Assembly: GCA_963555815.3 (NCBI GenBank)
Contig: CAUVWX020000001.1
Span: 672,001 to 736,000, forward strand
Length of the DNA: 64,000 nt
Origin: a bacterium
GTDB lineage: Bacteria; UBA8248; JACPRG01; G963555815
Direction: 5' to 3'
Below the pieces are notes generated by a model. That model was given only the letters and a program-made list of their open reading frames with translations. It was not told the DNA's origin and searched no databases. Every line of letters starts with the position of its first letter. Positions within the stretch are counted from its first letter, which is position 1. A program made the translations under genes and the position numbers. Below are positions 4,710 through 14,691 of this stretch, one piece after another.

Positions 4710-4893
4710 CCTGATCGGCGTCTCACACTTCCTCCACAGCTCAATCTAGCACCTCGCCAAGCGGGCGTTTTCCCTCTTCTGTTGGGCCGCCAGGGGCCCC
4801 TCAATTTTTCAGAAAAAACGGTAGTGGGTCGTTTTGATTGATTAATTAACGTGTTCGAGGGGGGGGGTGTTTTGAAAGGTTTTAGGGATCGTT

Positions 4894-4918
4894 AGTGCGT
4901 TATGCCGCTTAACGCACT
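4894..4918 (-). terminator. Hairpin downstream of doc gene
   Basis: AGTGCGTTA-N7-TAACGCACT 9-bp inverted repeat; no clear U tract. Confidence 0.45.
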
Positions 4919-4934
4919 TCGGAGAGCACGTTTT

Positions 4935-5375
4935 TCAAGGTCTAGCAAAGTCCCGCAAGGAACACCTTGGAGACAGCCACTCTTCGAATTCTTCTTTTCC
5001 CGTCTGTCCGTCTGCAATTTGAAGGAAAACCGCCGCAATTTCGCCTTGTTTGGCGTCTAATGAATATCCGTTTAAGCCCAGGAAACGGACTACACTGAGG
5101 GCGGCAATCCTCTTGTTGCCATCATTAAATGCGTGGGCTTGGCAGACATGAAATTCATAGGCAGCAGCCATCCCAAGAGGGAAAGAGTGTAAATATTCAC
5201 CGCCTGATGTAGCCCTCGCTTGGTGGATTGCGCTCTCAAGGGCGTTTCGATCTCTTAGCCCTGGCATTCCTCCAAATTCTTCAATAGCTGTCAAATGGGC
5301 CCCTATAACGTCTTCAATAAACAAAAAAGCGGGGCCGTAGCTTCTCACACGACCCCGCCCCGTTAAAACCATCAA
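4935..5375 (-). CDS. doc: Doc/Fic family toxin
   Basis: GGMPGLRD..LESA and Doc-type motif HAFNDGNKRIA; exact start uncertain. Confidence 0.88.
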   Translation of the reverse strand: MMVLTGRGRVRSYGPAFLFIEDVIGAHLTAIEEFGGMPGLRDRNALESAIHQARATSGGEYLHSFPLGMAAAYEFHVCQAHAFNDGNKRIAALSVVRFLGLNGYSLDAKQGEIAAVFLQIADGQTGKEEFEEWLSPRCSLRDFARP

Positions 5376-5376
5376 A

Positions 5377-5928
5377 CTAAAGATTTGCTAGGCTTTTAAA
5401 ATCTTCTCGGTATTTCTCTAGGCTCTCCTTGGTTACTTTCTCAAGAATTGCCTTTCGTCTGCACGCCATAGTCCCAACAATGTCTATACATTCATACTGC
5501 TTGGCCTTTACCATCGGTAGAGTAGAGTAGACATACTTAACGAATCTGCCCCACGGAAGCCTCCATGTGTCCTCAATAACCTTTCTTAGCACAATCTTTT
5601 CCTCGTTTGTAAGGGCTTCAGCGACAACCTGCTTTTGGAGATCGGTGGCTTTCCACTCATACCACCGCTTTTTATCGCCATACATGGTGACATCTTCGTG
5701 GATTTCAATCTTCTTCCCATCAAGAGACTCCACATAGGAATCACCGGCCCCAACAAATGGGCCATGGTTGTTAAAAATCCACCTTGTTTGCGTGAGTTGC
5801 TCTCCATTTCCCCACGCCCATTCAACATCTAGCAAGTAAATGAGCTTATCGAGCCTACCGCTCGTAAGCTCTTGGGGTCTGGGGTATTCTGAGACCAAGA
5901 AATCCACTAAGTCCGAGAATCTCGCCAC
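5377..5928 (-). CDS. Panacea (DUF4065/SocA-like) antitoxin with C-terminal Phd-like helix
   Basis: RLDKLIYLLD...W..NNHGPF...YVYSTLPM pattern; RBS GGAGGTG; coupled directly upstream of doc. Confidence 0.75.
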   Translation of the reverse strand: MARFSDLVDFLVSEYPRPQELTSGRLDKLIYLLDVEWAWGNGEQLTQTRWIFNNHGPFVGAGDSYVESLDGKKIEIHEDVTMYGDKKRWYEWKATDLQKQVVAEALTNEEKIVLRKVIEDTWRLPWGRFVKYVYSTLPMVKAKQYECIDIVGTMACRRKAILEKVTKESLEKYREDFKSLANL

Positions 5929-6039
5929 GGTTCGTCACCTCCACACTATTAATTTGGTAGATGGCGGTGAGGCACGTCAATAGCTTTTTCGCACTATGTA
6001 AAAAATATGGATTATTTTCTGCGTATCTATTAACACGCC

Positions 6040-6522
6040 ATGCCTCGGGGTCTATATTGTTTCTCAGCGTTTGACCTATTGGTAACCGGAGTGGATCCAA
6101 TAACTTTCAATGAGTCCGTAAAGAGCCAGATCGAAGTCCTCGCGGCTGGGGAGGCCCATATTCTAAGCACGATTGCTCCCCTACAAAAGGAGCTTGAGGA
6201 GATCAGGGCTCGGATGAACCACCTAGAAGGTTATTTGGCTGCCCTTGATTCGGGTGAGGCGCAAAAGGGCCTGAAAGAGAAAGAGCCCATAACGGATAAG
6301 ATTGTCCGTGTATTCGAAAGAGAAAAGCGTCCTCTTCACTACCTGGAGGTCTTGTCTTTGCTTAGGGAGCAGGAGGGGTTTGTTATGACTGGAAAAGACC
6401 CAAAGGCAAATATGACAGCAAAGCTAGCAGGAAGTGCAAGGTTTAGCCGTCTCGACCGTGGTATTTACGTTCTCACAGAGTGGACCAAACAAAATCAAAG
6501 AAAAGCCCCGCAGGAGGACTAA
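6040..6522 (+). CDS. Coiled-coil plus winged-HTH (HARE-HTH-like) protein
   Basis: N-terminal coiled coil, then PLHYLEV...GKDPKANMTAKL...RFSRLDRGIYVL; true start possibly GTG at about 6091. Confidence 0.65.
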   Translation: MPRGLYCFSAFDLLVTGVDPITFNESVKSQIEVLAAGEAHILSTIAPLQKELEEIRARMNHLEGYLAALDSGEAQKGLKEKEPITDKIVRVFEREKRPLHYLEVLSLLREQEGFVMTGKDPKANMTAKLAGSARFSRLDRGIYVLTEWTKQNQRKAPQED

Positions 6523-6536
6523 CCGTGCGGGGCTTT
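6502..6536. terminator. GC-rich hairpin at end of HTH gene
   Basis: AAAGCCCCGCA...TGCGGGGCTTT 11-bp inverted repeat. Confidence 0.55.
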
Positions 6537-6548
6537 GAAATTACTGGT

Positions 6549-6639
6549 GGATAGGGATAGGGGATAGTTCCCCTCGGGGACTTAAAATCCCACATAGTAT
6601 CCGGGCGGATATGCGGTTCGATTCCGCCCCTCTCCACCA
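6549..6639 (+). tRNA. Non-canonical 8/4 allo-tRNA-like gene, anticodon TAA
   Basis: Acceptor GGATAGGG/CCCTCTCC (8 bp, 1 mismatch); D-stem AGGGGA/TCCCCT with 4-nt loop; anticodon arm GGGA-CT[TAA]AA-TCCC; variable stem GTATCC/GGATAT; 4-bp T-stem GCGG-TTCGATT-CCGC; discriminator A plus CCA. Confidence 0.8.
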
Positions 6640-6810
6640 CCACAATATTTTTGGGTGGGCCTCAGCGGTAACTGAGGCCCCTGGCAACACCGCTTGGGAT
6701 GTGCCCCCTAGCGATGCACCCACCCTCTGACGAATTTAGGCTAAATCCCTCGATTCGTCAAGCATCCAACGGCGGGCATCACTCCCAGGCCCTTTTGGGA
6801 GTGCCTACCG

Positions 6811-7635
6811 ATGAACGTCCTGCCACTCAAGCGCAAGGCCCTGGTCCTGTCTGCCATTACCGAGGGCACCTCTATTCGGGGGGCCTCTCGGCTAACCGGC
6901 GTCCAGAAAAACACCATCATCAAGCTTATCTGCGACACAGCTGAGAAATGCTGGGCCATTTCAGACAGTAAACTCAATGGAATACAGGCAAACGATCTTC
7001 AATGTGATGAGCTTTGGAGCTTTGTCGGGAAAAGGGACAAGAGACTCTACGGCCACGAGAGGCCCTATCTCGGCAGCCAGTTCATCTTTGTGGCCCTTGA
7101 GGCTCAGACAAAACCGATCCCCTGCTTCACCGTTGGGAAGCGTGATCTCTATACAGCAACCAAATTTATGCGGGATCTAAGAAAAAGGGTCTCAGGTCGG
7201 CCTCAACTCACGACAGACGCCTTCCAGGCATATCACACAGCTGTCCGCTTAGCCTTTGGGTCCGACGTGGACTATGCTCGGCTGGCTAAATCCTTTGCCA
7301 ACAACGGGACCCCAAGGCGGGAAGGCTATGCCCCATCTGATTTCAGGGCGATTAAGCCTGTCGTAATTAGCGGGAACCCCGACCCAAATAAAATCTCAAC
7401 CTCTTACGTTGAAAGGCAAAATTTGACGCTGCGGATGCAGATGCGTAGGTTTACCAGATTAACCAACGCCTTCAGTAAAAAGCTCCCAAACCTTAGGGCT
7501 GCGCTATGGCTTCACTTCACCTACTACAATTTTTGCAGGGTGCATCAGATGCTGGGGGTTACTCCGGCTATGGCCTCAAATATTTCCGATTACCCCTGGA
7601 ATTGGAGGGAAATTCTGTCGTGGCAAGCCCAATAA
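6811..7635 (+). CDS. IS1-family DDE transposase (single ORF)
   Basis: N-terminal HTH (SIRGASRLTGVQKNTI); DDE motifs CDELWSFVGK, TTDAF, STSYVERQNLTLR; RRFTRLTNAFSKK. Confidence 0.88.
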   Translation: MNVLPLKRKALVLSAITEGTSIRGASRLTGVQKNTIIKLICDTAEKCWAISDSKLNGIQANDLQCDELWSFVGKRDKRLYGHERPYLGSQFIFVALEAQTKPIPCFTVGKRDLYTATKFMRDLRKRVSGRPQLTTDAFQAYHTAVRLAFGSDVDYARLAKSFANNGTPRREGYAPSDFRAIKPVVISGNPDPNKISTSYVERQNLTLRMQMRRFTRLTNAFSKKLPNLRAALWLHFTYYNFCRVHQMLGVTPAMASNISDYPWNWREILSWQAQ

Positions 7636-7709
7636 GGGACCGCAGAAAAGGGGCGCCTTTTATCCACCAGGAAAACGACCCACTACCGAAAAAACCTGTT
7701 GAAAAGTCT

Positions 7710-7882: not shown

Positions 7883-7945
7883 TCTGTTTGTGTGTGTGTT
7901 TTTAGGTAGATGTACCGTGTTGGCCTGGGGGATTTACACAGCATA

Positions 7946-9271
7946 ATGGAAGAGATTTGGAAAAACGCCCTTGATTCCCTCCGGAAAAGCGCCGGGGGGC
8001 ACTCCGTTGGGACCATGCTGGACCCCGTCAAACCCAAGTCCTTTGACGGGCAGACGTTGACCGTCGCGGTCCCAAACCGGTTCTTCCGGGACTACCTCAG
8101 CGAGCACTACGGGAAGGCCATCTCGGACGCCCTTCAGAAAATGGCCGGACAGCCCATTGGCTTTCACGTGGTCATAGAAGGAGACCCCCGCCGTCCTCGA
8201 GTTGTCGCCGACGAGACCCCGCCCGGGATCAACGAGACCCCCCAAAGCCCTCCGGTCTTTCTGAACGCCCGTTACACTTTCGAGAACTTCATGGTCGGGT
8301 CCTCTAACCAGTTCGCCCACGCAGCCGCCCAGGCTGTTGCCGAGAGCCCGGCGACCGCTTATAACCCCCTATTCATCTACGGGGCCGTTGGGCTGGGCAA
8401 GACCCACCTAATGCACGCTATCGGGCATTTCGTCTTTGAGCGAAACCCGCACGCGAAGCTATGTTACGTCTCCTCTGAGAGCTTCACCCTCGACCTTATC
8501 AACTCCATCCGCCACGATCGGATGGGTGAGTTTCGCAACCGGTACCGGAAGATGGACGTCCTCCTGGTTGATGACATCCAGTTTATCGCGGGGAAGGACC
8601 GGACCCAGGAGGAGTTTTTCCATACTTTCAACACCCTCTATGAGTCAAAAAAACAGATCGTTCTCTCTTGCGACAAATATCCCAAGGAGATGATGGACCT
8701 TGAGGAGCGACTGCGCTCTCGCTTCGAATGGGGGCTTGTGGCGGACATCCAACCACCAGACCTCGAAACCAAGGTCGCCATTTTCAATAAGAAGGCCGAA
8801 GAGAACGGGATTGAGATCCCCCCTGACGTGGCCCTTTACGTCGCGGGGAAGATCCGGGCGAACGTGCGGCAGCTCGAGGGATGCCTGATCCGCCTGGGCG
8901 CCTTCAGCTCTTTAACAAAAACACCCATTACCATAGCCCTGGCAGATAAGATCCTCCACCAGATACTCCAGGAGGAGGAGAAGGCTATCACCATCGAGAC
9001 TATCCAGAAGGCTGTGGCGCAATACTTCGGTCTCAAGGTGTCTGACCTCCGGTCAAAGAGGCGCCAGCGGACTATTTCTGAACCCCGCCAGATCGCCATG
9101 TTCTTGTCCAGGGAACTAACAAAGGCCTCTTTACCGGAGATTGGGCGCCGGTTTGGGGGGAAGGATCACAGCACAGTCATCCATTCGTGTAAAAAGATTC
9201 AGTCTGCCAGGGAAAGCAACCCGACTATCCAGGCGGCCATCGACCGAGTTCGGGCAACACTTGAGGTTTAA
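7946..9271 (+). CDS. dnaA: Chromosomal replication initiator DnaA
   Basis: YTFENF, YNPLFIYGAVGLGKTHL, LLVDDIQF, RSRFEWGL, GGKDHSTV; an alternative in-frame ATG lies at 7910. Confidence 0.98.
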   Translation: MEEIWKNALDSLRKSAGGHSVGTMLDPVKPKSFDGQTLTVAVPNRFFRDYLSEHYGKAISDALQKMAGQPIGFHVVIEGDPRRPRVVADETPPGINETPQSPPVFLNARYTFENFMVGSSNQFAHAAAQAVAESPATAYNPLFIYGAVGLGKTHLMHAIGHFVFERNPHAKLCYVSSESFTLDLINSIRHDRMGEFRNRYRKMDVLLVDDIQFIAGKDRTQEEFFHTFNTLYESKKQIVLSCDKYPKEMMDLEERLRSRFEWGLVADIQPPDLETKVAIFNKKAEENGIEIPPDVALYVAGKIRANVRQLEGCLIRLGAFSSLTKTPITIALADKILHQILQEEEKAITIETIQKAVAQYFGLKVSDLRSKRRQRTISEPRQIAMFLSRELTKASLPEIGRRFGGKDHSTVIHSCKKIQSARESNPTIQAAIDRVRATLEV

Positions 9272-11949
<2,678 letters not shown>

Positions 11950-12174
11950 GAGCGCCGGGCAGTTTTGAGTCAAGGGCCGCGGGCTGACACTGACGGCCCC
12001 TGCGGTGGCACAGGTAACACTCGCGCAACAAGACGATCAACCCGTCATCTTTCTTTGTAAAGGTCTCGGGCGAGCGCGGTTGCAGAAAAAGCCGTGGCTT
12101 CGCCCCATTGCCAGATAACTGGATGAGGGCTTGGGCAAACCGGCCCGGCTGAACACCTGAGCGAAAGGGCGTCT

Positions 12175-14691
12175 ATGAACCAAATCCAGGAGTCGCGCAT
12201 CCCGGTCCCCATCGAGGAGGAGATGAAATCCTCCTTCATGGACTACGCCATGAGCGTCATCATCGCTCGGGCGCTCCCGGATGTCCGGGATGGGCTAAAA
12301 CCTGTCCACCGGCGGATCCTGGTGACGCTGAACGACCTGAACCTTCGGCCAGGGCGGGGCTTCCGAAAGTGCGCCAAGATCGCCGGTGACGTCAGCGGGA
12401 ACTACCACCCCCACGGCGAGGCCATCGTCTATCCCTCTCTCGTCCGAATGGCCCAGGATTTCTCCCTTCGCTATCCCCTCGTCAAGGGCCAGGGGAATTT
12501 CGGATCGGTGGACGGGGATCCCCCTGCGGCCATGCGTTACACCGAGGCCCGTATGACGGCCCTCACTGAGGAGATGCTCCAGGACCTCGAGAGGGAAACA
12601 GTCGATTTCGTCCCGAACTACGATGAGACCCGCAGGGAGCCGGTTGTCCTCCCCTCGGCCATTCCGAATCTTGTCGTCAACGGCTCTGACGGAATCGCGG
12701 TCGGGATGGCCACCAAGATCCCGCCGCACAACCTCACGGAGGTGGTGGCGGGGATCATGGCCCTCTTGGACGACCCCGACCTGCCGCCGGAAGCCCTCCT
12801 GGCGCACATTCCGGGCCCCGACTTTCCGACGGGGGCCGTCATTTACGGGCGAAAAGGCATCCGGGACGCCTACCTGACGGGCCGAGGACTTCTACAGCTT
12901 CGCGCCCCAGCCTCTACCGAAAGGATAAAGCGGGCAGGGCGTGAGGTGGAAGCCATCATTATCAACGAGATCCCCTATCAGGTGAACAAGGCGAAGCTGA
13001 TCGAGCGGATCGCCGACCTGGTCCGAGACAAAAAGGTCGAGGGGATCTCGGACTTGCGGGACGAGTCGGACCGCGAGGGCATGCGGATTGTCATCGAGCT
13101 TAAGCGCGAGGGCGTCTTTTCGGTCACCCTGAACCAGCTCTATCGGCACACCCCCATGCAGGTCACCTTTGGGGTCATCCTTCTTGCCCTTGTGAACAAC
13201 CAGCCCCGCGTCCTCAATCTTAAGGAGCTTCTGGTCCACTTCATCAACCACCGCAAGGACGTGGTGGTTCGCCGGACCCAGTTCGACCTGAAGAAGGCCC
13301 AGGACCGGGCGCACATCCTGGAAGGGCTCCTGGTCGCCCTCGGGAAGATCGATGCCGTCATCAAGCTCATTCGGGGCTCCAAGACGGGCGAGGAGGCGCG
13401 CTCGGGTCTCATAGGACAATTCAAGATCACCCAGGTTCAGGCCCAGGCCATCCTGGAGATGAGGCTCCAGCGCTTGGTGGCTCTGGAGAGGAAGAAGATC
13501 GAGGCGGAACACCAGGAGCTCACAGAAAAGATCGCGCGCTTCAAGGCCATTCTGGCCGACGAGAAGCTGGTTGCCCGGGTCGTCCGAGAAGAGCTCCTCG
13601 AGGTCAAAAAGAAATACGGAGACGAGAGGCGGACGCAGATCGTAGATGAAACCTCCGAGATCACCTTCGAGGACACCCTCGTCGAAGAGGACATGGCGGT
13701 CACCATCAGCCGCTCGGGCTACATCAAACGGAACGCCGTCTCCCTCTATCGAAGCCAGCGACGAGGCGGCAAGGGCGTCCGGGGGATGGGGACCAAGGAG
13801 GAGGACATCGTAGAGGCCCTCTTCGTGGCTTCTACGCACGACACGGTCCTCTTCTTCACGAATCAGGGCCGCGTTCATTGGCTCAAGGTCTATCAGCTCC
13901 CGCAGGCCAGCAGGGCCGCCAAGGGAAAAAACATCGTCAACCTCCTTAAGCTGAAGGAGGGGGAGACCGTCTCCCAGACCCTCCCGGTGCGGGACTTTGA
14001 CGAAAAGAGGTTTGTCCTCATGGTGACGCGCAAGGGCGTGCTCAAGAAGACGGCCCTGTCGGCTTTTCGCCGGCCCAAGGCAGGGGGGATCATCGCCATC
14101 CAGCTCAGGGAGGGGGATGAGCTTGAGGCCGTGCGCCTCACGGATGGCCAGCGAGAGGTCTTCCTCGGCTCCAGCAAGGGAAAGGCCGTGCGCTTCTCTG
14201 AAGAACGGGTTCGCCCGATGGGGAGAACAGCGGCCGGCGTGAGGGGAATGGCCCTTGGACAGGGAGATGTCATCGTGGGGGCCGAAGTGGTCGCAGAGGG
14301 TTGCACCGTTCTCTCGGTGACGGAGAAAGGCTATGGGAAGCGGACTTCCCTTGAGGACTATCGCCTCACGAACCGTGGCGGAAAGGGGATCATCAACCTC
14401 AGGGTGGTCAAGAAGAACGGGCCCGTCGTGGGGATCATGCAGGTCTATGAGGATGACGAGTTCATCCTGATTACGTCGGGAGGACAGGTGATCCGCTCAA
14501 AGGTCAGGGATATTGCAGTCCATGGCCGGGGGACCCAGGGGGTCAAGGTCATCAACCTTGCGTCGGGAGACCGCGTCGTGGGGGTTGCTCGCCTGCCCGA
14601 ACAGGAGGAAACGGGCGAGCTGGCTCCCCAAGATGGGGATCAAATGCCCGGGTCCGAGGAAGGAAATAACGAGAAAGAGGCGAAACGCTAA
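12175..14691 (+). CDS. gyrA: DNA gyrase subunit A
   Basis: RALPDVRDGLKPVHRR, AAMRYTE, GyrA-box QRRGGKG. Confidence 0.98.
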   Translation: MNQIQESRIPVPIEEEMKSSFMDYAMSVIIARALPDVRDGLKPVHRRILVTLNDLNLRPGRGFRKCAKIAGDVSGNYHPHGEAIVYPSLVRMAQDFSLRYPLVKGQGNFGSVDGDPPAAMRYTEARMTALTEEMLQDLERETVDFVPNYDETRREPVVLPSAIPNLVVNGSDGIAVGMATKIPPHNLTEVVAGIMALLDDPDLPPEALLAHIPGPDFPTGAVIYGRKGIRDAYLTGRGLLQLRAPASTERIKRAGREVEAIIINEIPYQVNKAKLIERIADLVRDKKVEGISDLRDESDREGMRIVIELKREGVFSVTLNQLYRHTPMQVTFGVILLALVNNQPRVLNLKELLVHFINHRKDVVVRRTQFDLKKAQDRAHILEGLLVALGKIDAVIKLIRGSKTGEEARSGLIGQFKITQVQAQAILEMRLQRLVALERKKIEAEHQELTEKIARFKAILADEKLVARVVREELLEVKKKYGDERRTQIVDETSEITFEDTLVEEDMAVTISRSGYIKRNAVSLYRSQRRGGKGVRGMGTKEEDIVEALFVASTHDTVLFFTNQGRVHWLKVYQLPQASRAAKGKNIVNLLKLKEGETVSQTLPVRDFDEKRFVLMVTRKGVLKKTALSAFRRPKAGGIIAIQLREGDELEAVRLTDGQREVFLGSSKGKAVRFSEERVRPMGRTAAGVRGMALGQGDVIVGAEVVAEGCTVLSVTEKGYGKRTSLEDYRLTNRGGKGIINLRVVKKNGPVVGIMQVYEDDEFILITSGGQVIRSKVRDIAVHGRGTQGVKVINLASGDRVVGVARLPEQEETGELAPQDGDQMPGSEEGNNEKEAKR

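Follow-up and report, generated by a model that had tools for sequence, protein, structure and literature searches.

In Streptomyces the bldA tRNA-Leu(UAA) controls genes that contain TTA codons, and in IS10 the trans-acting RNA-OUT limits the element's own transposase, which is known as multicopy inhibition. Non-canonical tRNAs of another kind, the allo-tRNAs, were described by Mukai et al. (2017; PMC5389517). Allo-tRNAs were shown to be delivered by EF-Tu in E. coli, a 9/3 allo-tRNA with the anticodon UAA inserted serine at UUA codons, and allo-tRNA induction was toxic and killed the cells (PMC5389517). Some were found in the vicinity of toxin-antitoxin genes and of one gene related to transposons (PMC5389517), and 8/4 forms with UAA as well as Leu-bodied 7/5 UUA tRNAs are listed (PMC5389517; review PMC7609411). 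Panacea (PanA) antitoxins are paired with Fic/Doc toxins; a pair from C. doosanense was validated, and such pairs often lie near transposases (Kurata et al., 2022; PMC8832971). What allo-tRNAs and other tRNAs with mismatched anticodons do in nature has been an open question since 2017. The window analyzed here, a stretch of 64,000 nucleotides of a bacterial genome (contig CAUVWX020000001.1, positions 672,001 to 736,000, assembly GCA_963555815.3), contains a small transposon (4820..7687) with an allo-tRNA gene, the anticodon of which matches a rare codon at the near-invariant Leu217 of the transposon's own transposase. As such matches are repeated in relatives, the tRNA likely tunes the jumping of its own element and probably brakes it, rather than acting together with the toxin that is also encoded on the element.

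The terminal 16 bp of the 2.9-kb element form perfect inverted repeats of the GGTAGTG type common to the family (4820..4835 on the plus strand, 7672..7687 on the minus strand). Both ends abut a copy of the 8-bp target duplication GAAAAAAC (4812..4819 and 7688..7695, plus strand); the dnaA promoter region is located a short way downstream of the right copy. In the same-genus genome G001, a sister species, both flanks match and only one copy of GAAAAAAC is present, so that the empty site that the first-pass annotation, made from the DNA letters alone, had proposed to look for was indeed found. The element occurs once in its 2.08-Mb genome and has a GC content of about 50%, compared to 60% for the genome. 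It is a real bounded mobile unit, a cargo-carrying transposon of the IS1 family. The repeats, the duplication, the uninterrupted transposase and the arrangement of panacea and doc on the minus strand, divergent from an HTH gene, the tRNA-like gene and the transposase gene on the plus strand, had all been noticed in the first-pass annotation and were verified by coordinates and sequence. The ISMhu11 group or "transporter IS", which we take to be IS1 single-ORF passenger carriers (these names were not found in literature searches), resemble the element in repeats starting with GGT, an 8-bp duplication, an HTH protein together with a DDE transposase, and passengers upstream of the transposase. 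The window element differs from them by a match to the profile NF033558 that stays below the cut-off, by the lack of an InsA/InsB frameshift, and by the tRNA passenger.

The tRNA-like gene (6549..6639, plus strand), already suspected to be non-canonical, is an 8/4 allo-tRNA by its sequence and thus belongs to an already described class. It was missed by ARAGORN and matched the Rfam tRNA-Sec model with 50.4 bits, and tRNA-Sec identity was ruled out by the anticodon UAA and the 12-bp (8 + 4) branch instead of UCA and 13 bp. The host genome has its own tRNA-Sec and its own tRNA-Leu(UAA) at other loci, and the anticodon arm of the latter is nearly identical to that of the window tRNA. The tRNA has an 8-bp acceptor stem with one mismatch, a 4-bp T stem, a 6-bp D stem with a UAGU tetraloop, a long variable arm with a 6-bp stem, A37, A73 and an encoded CCA. 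At 6634-6642 CCACCA is encoded, and the 5' leader of the tRNA (6545-6550) is able to pair with the CCA end. The branch, the long D stem with its tetraloop, the variable arm, the Sec-like score and the non-Ser anticodon are shared with the 8/4 allo-tRNAs of PMC5389517, in contrast to A73, which replaces their G73; most allo-tRNAs typically have G73 or U73. The closest homologue, from locus L231, is also an 8/4 tRNA, with G73 and the anticodon UAG. The synthetases for Ala, Leu and Ser do not depend on the anticodon; A73 is a Leu determinant, Ser identity depends on the variable arm together with G1-C72 and G2-C71, and G73 is of importance for charging with Ser in vivo (PMC9976931). In the window tRNA G1-C72, G2-C71 and the long variable arm are present and the D-loop features for LeuRS are absent. 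Given A73 beside these Ser features, serine is predicted in first place, and leucine is possible. EF-Tu would be expected to deliver the charged tRNA, as it does other allo-tRNAs in E. coli (PMC5389517). Of the earlier proposal that EF-Tu or SelB would be needed, the EF-Tu part therefore stood, and a need for SelB was dropped in view of the 12-bp branch and the lack of a Sec anticodon.

The transposase gene (6811..7635, plus strand) encodes an uninterrupted single-ORF DDE transposase of the IS1 family with 274 amino acids. PF03400 matched above its cut-off and NF033558 with 64.8 bits, below its cut-off of 100. The catalytic residues D66, D136 and E201 are present; among 160 related loci the two aspartates are found in 160 and the glutamate in 159. 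Only three of the 26 Leu codons are UUR codons, namely Leu147 (TTA), Leu205 (TTG) and Leu217 (TTA, 7459-7461), and Leu205 and Leu217 are near-invariant residues beside the catalytic E201. TTA is the rarest sense codon of the host (918/440,881). The codons were compared in a set of 162 IS1-type transposases, from which 12 duplicates had been dropped. Leu217 is a leucine in 161/162 transposases, and the matching codon is present there in all five elements whose tRNA has a Leu anticodon, TTA in the window element and CTA in the UAG elements L229, L231, L237 and L240. The background in 129 tRNA-less elements was TTA in 8 and CTA in 12 cases, and the codon was CTG in the three closest relatives with other anticodons, i.e., L226, L227 and element C from the window genome. 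At Leu158 CTA was present in 4/4 UAG elements, compared to 6/158 others. Fisher tests yielded p values of 1.4e-4 for Leu217 and 7.6e-6 for Leu158, and 1.2e-3 and 1.2e-4, respectively, when three lineages were counted. Five of six UAU elements contain 4–8 ATA codons, versus about one in GC3-matched controls. A match was also observed in a second transposon family, IS1595: seven of nine elements with a Leu-bodied UGG tRNA have CCA at column 299, compared to 2/68 others (77 rows; p 5e-7); four of the nine have been shown to enclose the tRNA by repeats. In IS1 elements a codon matching the anticodon was never found in a column with the amino acid of the tRNA body as consensus, so that miscoding would remove, and not restore, a needed residue, which points to a brake. 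For the IS1595 elements, restoration of a conserved leucine at column 299 was considered and rejected as unproven; among 120 homologues, this column has Pro in 42, Ser in 31 and Leu in 2.

To see the element in the context of its family, 160 loci with related transposases were compiled, 80 from genomes and 80 from viral sequences; the whole family is estimated at 6,200 stretches. A terminal repeat pair was present in 125 loci and a perfect duplication in 100 (8 bp in 98 of them), and the median length was 3.2 kb. The proposed tabulation of cargo (145 representatives scanned, 30 of them against PADLOC) revealed a family rich in matches to toxin-antitoxin, restriction and defence families. An element-type tRNA was found in 29/160 loci, 25 of them distinct after removal of L135 and L140-142; elements B and C of the window genome escaped a strict cloverleaf finder, and the counts come from other searches. 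In 22/25 cases the tRNA lies on the transposase strand up to about 900 nt upstream, and in 19 it is within a detected repeat pair. The bodies comprise 15 Ala (G3.U70, A73), 4 Leu, 4 Ser, one Gln-like and one Arg-like tRNA, so that Ala, Leu and Ser account for 23/25. The anticodons are UUA (14), UAU (4), CUA (2), and UCA, UGA, GGA, CGG and CCC (one each), and in none of the 25 was the anticodon cognate to the body, with a less certain loop assignment for four short tRNAs. Nine loci (L025, L030, L057, L058, L066, L100, L114, L146, L173) contain short ochre tRNAs of Ala identity, whose anticodon loops are weak and whose CCA is often not encoded, and no target was found for them. In six UUA elements the upstream genes on the same strand end in TAA or TAG. 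Two irregular tRNAs each were present in L237, L240 and L333, which resembles the polycistrons of PMC5389517.

Outside the window genome (G000), 51 genomes of the phylum contained 12 near-full-length loci, and in six of these a tRNA lies inside the element. Locus L226 (same family, 57% transposase identity) has the same layout as the window element: a truncated doc, a hairpin, panacea, the shared promoter region, the HTH gene, a tRNA and the transposase gene. Its tRNA has a 7/5 Ser body and the anticodon UAU. At L231 the tRNA closest to that of the window adjoins a RelE/HigA-like pair, and in the 160-locus set only two of eight Panacea-bearing elements contain a tRNA. Because of these three observations the tRNA is, as judged from sequence comparison, a module of the transposon and not of the toxin. 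The tRNA and the toxin-antitoxin pair do co-occur in a related element, the whole layout recurring once, in L226. The view of Doc and the tRNA as linked translation-directed components nevertheless received no support, as the modules are shuffled. The window genome itself harbors the IS1 element C (L002 5286-7253) and the IS1595 element B (L001 5277-8443; G000:C1 ~813.3-816.4 kb), in both of which a Leu-bodied UGG tRNA precedes the transposase gene; a third IS1 element has no tRNA. In element C the HTH reading frame continues through the tRNA. In L237 the HTH frame ends inside the tRNA, so that maturation of the tRNA would sever the HTH mRNA upstream of its stop codon. Element B has an 8-bp duplication, and its UGG tRNA is degenerate. 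The stop codon of its transposase gene (7276) is overlapped by a perfect copy of the 16-bp repeat of the window element, and the IS1 element L041 has an HTH gene related to that of element B; together this points to module exchange between the families.

A mechanism by which the tRNA could act as a brake can be outlined. A host enzyme would charge the tRNA with serine and EF-Tu would deliver it, and serine at essential leucines would spoil part of the transposase. The HTH gene, the tRNA and the transposase gene may form one transcript from an HTH-controlled promoter, and a lag of tRNA maturation behind the synthesis of the transposase could result in a transposition pulse in a new host, followed by a shut-off in trans. 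The choice of a rare codon would spare the host. That the transposon-borne allo-tRNA restrains its transposase by miscoding at the UUA codon of Leu217 has, in our estimation, nearly an even chance. We are about as tentative, and stop just short of favoring it, on the general proposal that anticodon-blind tRNAs were recruited again and again in two unrelated families to serve as private decoders for a single transposase codon, with anticodon and codon changing together. The rare codon as a translational switch is reminiscent of bldA, and the restriction of an element's own transposase by an RNA acting in trans is reminiscent of RNA-OUT. Unlike both, the window tRNA is encoded on a mobile element, its body is non-canonical, and its predicted action is by miscoding, not by supply or base-pairing. 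The kinds of components are already known, and the proposed link from a tRNA to a fixed transposase codon would be the new part. The first-pass annotation had not recognized the combination from described systems; this does not apply to allo-tRNAs near toxin-antitoxin or transposon genes or to Panacea-Fic/Doc pairs near transposases, which have been published, but it does apply to the codon link. The accessible part of PMC5389517 contains no description of a repeat-bounded element, a fixed slot or a match between anticodon and transposase codon, and the link was not found in the literature beyond the allo-tRNA papers, in searches that left most subscription journals and bioRxiv supplements outside their scope. 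Here, allo-tRNAs have a defined carrier, a fixed slot and a named target codon, Leu217. If the proposal is true, they would have a natural job and a vehicle, transposition would be self-regulated at the codon level, and a transposon would have a new means to limit or time its own activity. Miscoding and stop-suppressor tRNAs would then travel between phyla in small transposons overlooked by gene callers, as ARAGORN's failure at the window tRNA illustrates.

Several observations weigh against a brake. About four fifths of the family members have no tRNA. TTA is present at position 217 in 6/28 elements with unrelated anticodons and CTA in three, and the tRNA-less L230 also has CTA. The TTA of the window element is one event, and the single-element test against all conserved Leu columns was not significant (0.31). 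Kin are not independent, the IS1595 counts were made without a tree, and column 299 may be constrained at the DNA level; furthermore, the Leu-bodied tRNA predicted near L258, which has TCA at 299, was not found. Among sense anticodons, L116 has no matching codon and L078 and L105 have no excess. For the stop-anticodon tRNAs, 17 of the 25, no target was found in the transposases, only L055 having an internal TAA. Lastly, the window tRNA has A73, the Leu determinant, while G73 was present in all 16 UAA rows among the matches listed in supplement sheet 1 of PMC5389517.

A73 in this copy points to a possible effect of the opposite sign, in which a Leu-charged tRNA would supply a scarce UUA decoder for translation of the transposase, and of Doc, as in the bldA system. 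A73 is common to the window strain and to runs X5 and X7, the UAA loop is canonical, the anticodon arm is nearly that of the host tRNA-Leu(UAA), and the codon placement fits such a gate as well as a brake; in addition, four of the 14 Leu codons of doc are TTA, one of them at codon 3 ahead of a terminator. We nevertheless regard this alternative as unlikely. The host already has a tRNA-Leu(UAA), the allo-type D arm lacks A15-U48 and the A20a context (PMC9976931), and body and anticodon are mismatched in every relative, examples being Ser bodies with G73 and an Ala body that combines G3.U70 with the anticodon UAG. Also, TTA makes up 7/78 Leu codons in the window element and is no commoner than in elements B (5/42) and C (4/47), which have no UAA tRNA. 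It would be more surprising still if the tRNA were a defence by miscoding, a poison directed at the A-ending codons that are frequent in AT-rich phages, inducible and freed when HTH repression fails, even though allo-tRNA induction killed E. coli (PMC5389517), 20/25 anticodons start with U, the cargo is defence-like, and UAA, UAU and UAG read the first, third and fifth rarest host codons. The element's own transposase is enriched in the target codon and not cleared of it, TAA is not avoided in the genes next to stop-anticodon elements (23/60 vs. 120/473), and the flanks do not differ in GC content (p 0.30).

The tRNA could also be a passenger captured by elements that landed beside host tRNA genes, with an anticodon drifting to the least harmful form and without function in this copy. 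Host-type tRNA genes lie at most 100 nt from eight distinct elements among 120 of the main set (L049, L062, L065, L068, L089, L106, L134, L149) and also near L240, a proximity that is a possible route of tRNA capture. The tRNA label changes 15 times on the transposase tree of 159 rows, at least 10 of these changes being forced, and the window strain has two damaging tRNA changes and a lost HTH start codon. Drift would not be expected to yield the covariation with codons, the constant slot and strand in 22/25, anticodon-blind bodies in 23/25 and cognate anticodons in 0/25, and we judge this explanation just as improbable as the phage poison. Least probable is the explanation of the first-pass annotation, that Doc and the tRNA are one translation-directed module acting via EF-Tu. 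It could draw on the gene order shared with L226 and on the two host tuf genes (G000:C1 19197-20390 and 35873-37066), each with TTA at 6/28 Leu codons. Against it stand the different tRNA type in L226, the RelE/HigA-like, restriction or absent toxin genes in other tRNA elements, the divergent transcription units, and a TTA-rich tuf also in the element-free G001 (5 TTA). Both tuf genes have TTG at another 13/28 Leu codons and encode the motif GHVQHGK; genome-wide, TTA accounts for 1.9% of Leu codons.

The state of this copy was compared across strains. In runs X5, X7 and X8, which stem from three studies, contigs contain the element at the same site. The whole stretch is covered by those of X7 and X8, which differ by about 1% both within the element and beyond it and contain no empty-site joint. 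In the window tRNA 7/8 acceptor pairs are formed, versus 8/8 in X5, X7 and X8; a U4.C69 mismatch and A18 are present where X7 and X8 have G and G, and the latter have a UGGU tetraloop. X7 and X8 also have an ATG start of the HTH gene, but their transposase has the exchanges E201K and R212C. Conversely, the window allele has an intact catalytic triad, yet a damaged tRNA and an ATA at the HTH start. Non-synonymous versus synonymous changes were 13/2 in the transposase, 0/2 in panacea and 3/1 in doc; these small numbers fit a settled element with a decaying mobility module and a retained antitoxin. In the window strain the tRNA-transposase circuit is probably decaying. Of the earlier description as an intact and recently inserted unit, the intact triad and the uninterrupted transposase were confirmed, whereas the shared insertion in strains about 1% apart, the transposase changes and the decay of HTH start and tRNA speak against a recently inserted, intact unit. 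RNA data comprised one 227-nt contig inside panacea (library X18), which is unable to show transcription, and none on the tRNA.

A putative sigma70-like promoter (6030..6058, plus strand; 10/12 consensus) precedes the HTH, tRNA and transposase genes and is kept in L226, there with a consensus -35 box. The HTH gene (6100..6522, plus strand), which contains no TTA among 16 Leu codons, encodes a coiled-coil and winged-HTH (HARE-HTH-like) protein (PF05066, 23.8 bits, just below the cut-off of 25.9) with 58% identity to its L226 homologue. A PDB search with the alignment yielded only coiled coils and weak delta-subunit matches. The first-pass assignment as an HTH protein was retained, and the protein is likely a regulator. 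A hairpin predicted from the sequence (6502..6536, plus strand) spans the HTH stop codon directly before the tRNA and has equivalents in elements B and C and in L226. Between the tRNA and the transposase start lies a conserved structured leader (6645..6810, plus strand), which occurs in tRNA-less relatives, too; 11/24 predicted pairs were changed on both sides in seven sequences (the window and L226-L231).

The Panacea-Doc pair of the first-pass annotation was corroborated by profile matches and adjacency. The Panacea (SocA-like) antitoxin gene (5377..5928, minus strand) matched PF13274 with 33.3 bits (cut-off 25.7), and its product is 44% identical to the L226 homologue. The Doc-type toxin gene (4935..5372, minus strand), with an uncertain start at ATG 5372 or GTG 5348, encodes the motif HAFNDGNKR and matched PF02661, TIGR01550 (47.6 bits, cut-off 38.65) and, with phmmer, P1 Doc (E 1.3e-8). 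Adjacent Panacea- and Doc-domain genes and the Doc motif are features of a type II toxin-antitoxin system. A terminator-like hairpin between the two genes (5326..5361, minus strand; 14 pairs, U tail) overlaps the 5' end of the toxin gene, has an equivalent in L226, and would likely hold the toxin level below that of the antitoxin. The order, Panacea upstream of a Doc-motif toxin, is that of the pairs in PMC8832971; the predicted window pair differs by the terminator-like hairpin across the toxin start. PADLOC yielded no full system, only partial Fic-type matches for Doc, and none for Panacea or HTH. The pair is exchangeable cargo separate from the tRNA and likely serves to retain the element in place.

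Further candidate roles were tried and rejected: no case was found in which ochre tRNAs would gate the transposase or the cargo through an in-frame stop, and neither a supply of codons for the cargo nor the AT-rich-invader test received support. Transposase stop codons were unbiased (TAA/TAG in 9/17 UUA loci vs. 75/131 tRNA-less loci). A metagenome scan with a degenerate pattern yielded 18 loci, none with the transposase, and low-threshold ARAGORN matches were noise. The plasmid search returned 19 records, and a viral scan with the element B transposase alone returned one locus. In G000 and G001, tRNA-like 3' halves are present at L233 4733-4816 and 5444-5527, L234 4709-4797 and L235 4522-4609, which are probably integration-site duplicates of tRNA-Leu. 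In the window, gyrB and gyrA directly follow dnaA (7910-14691), with no dnaN or recF between them.

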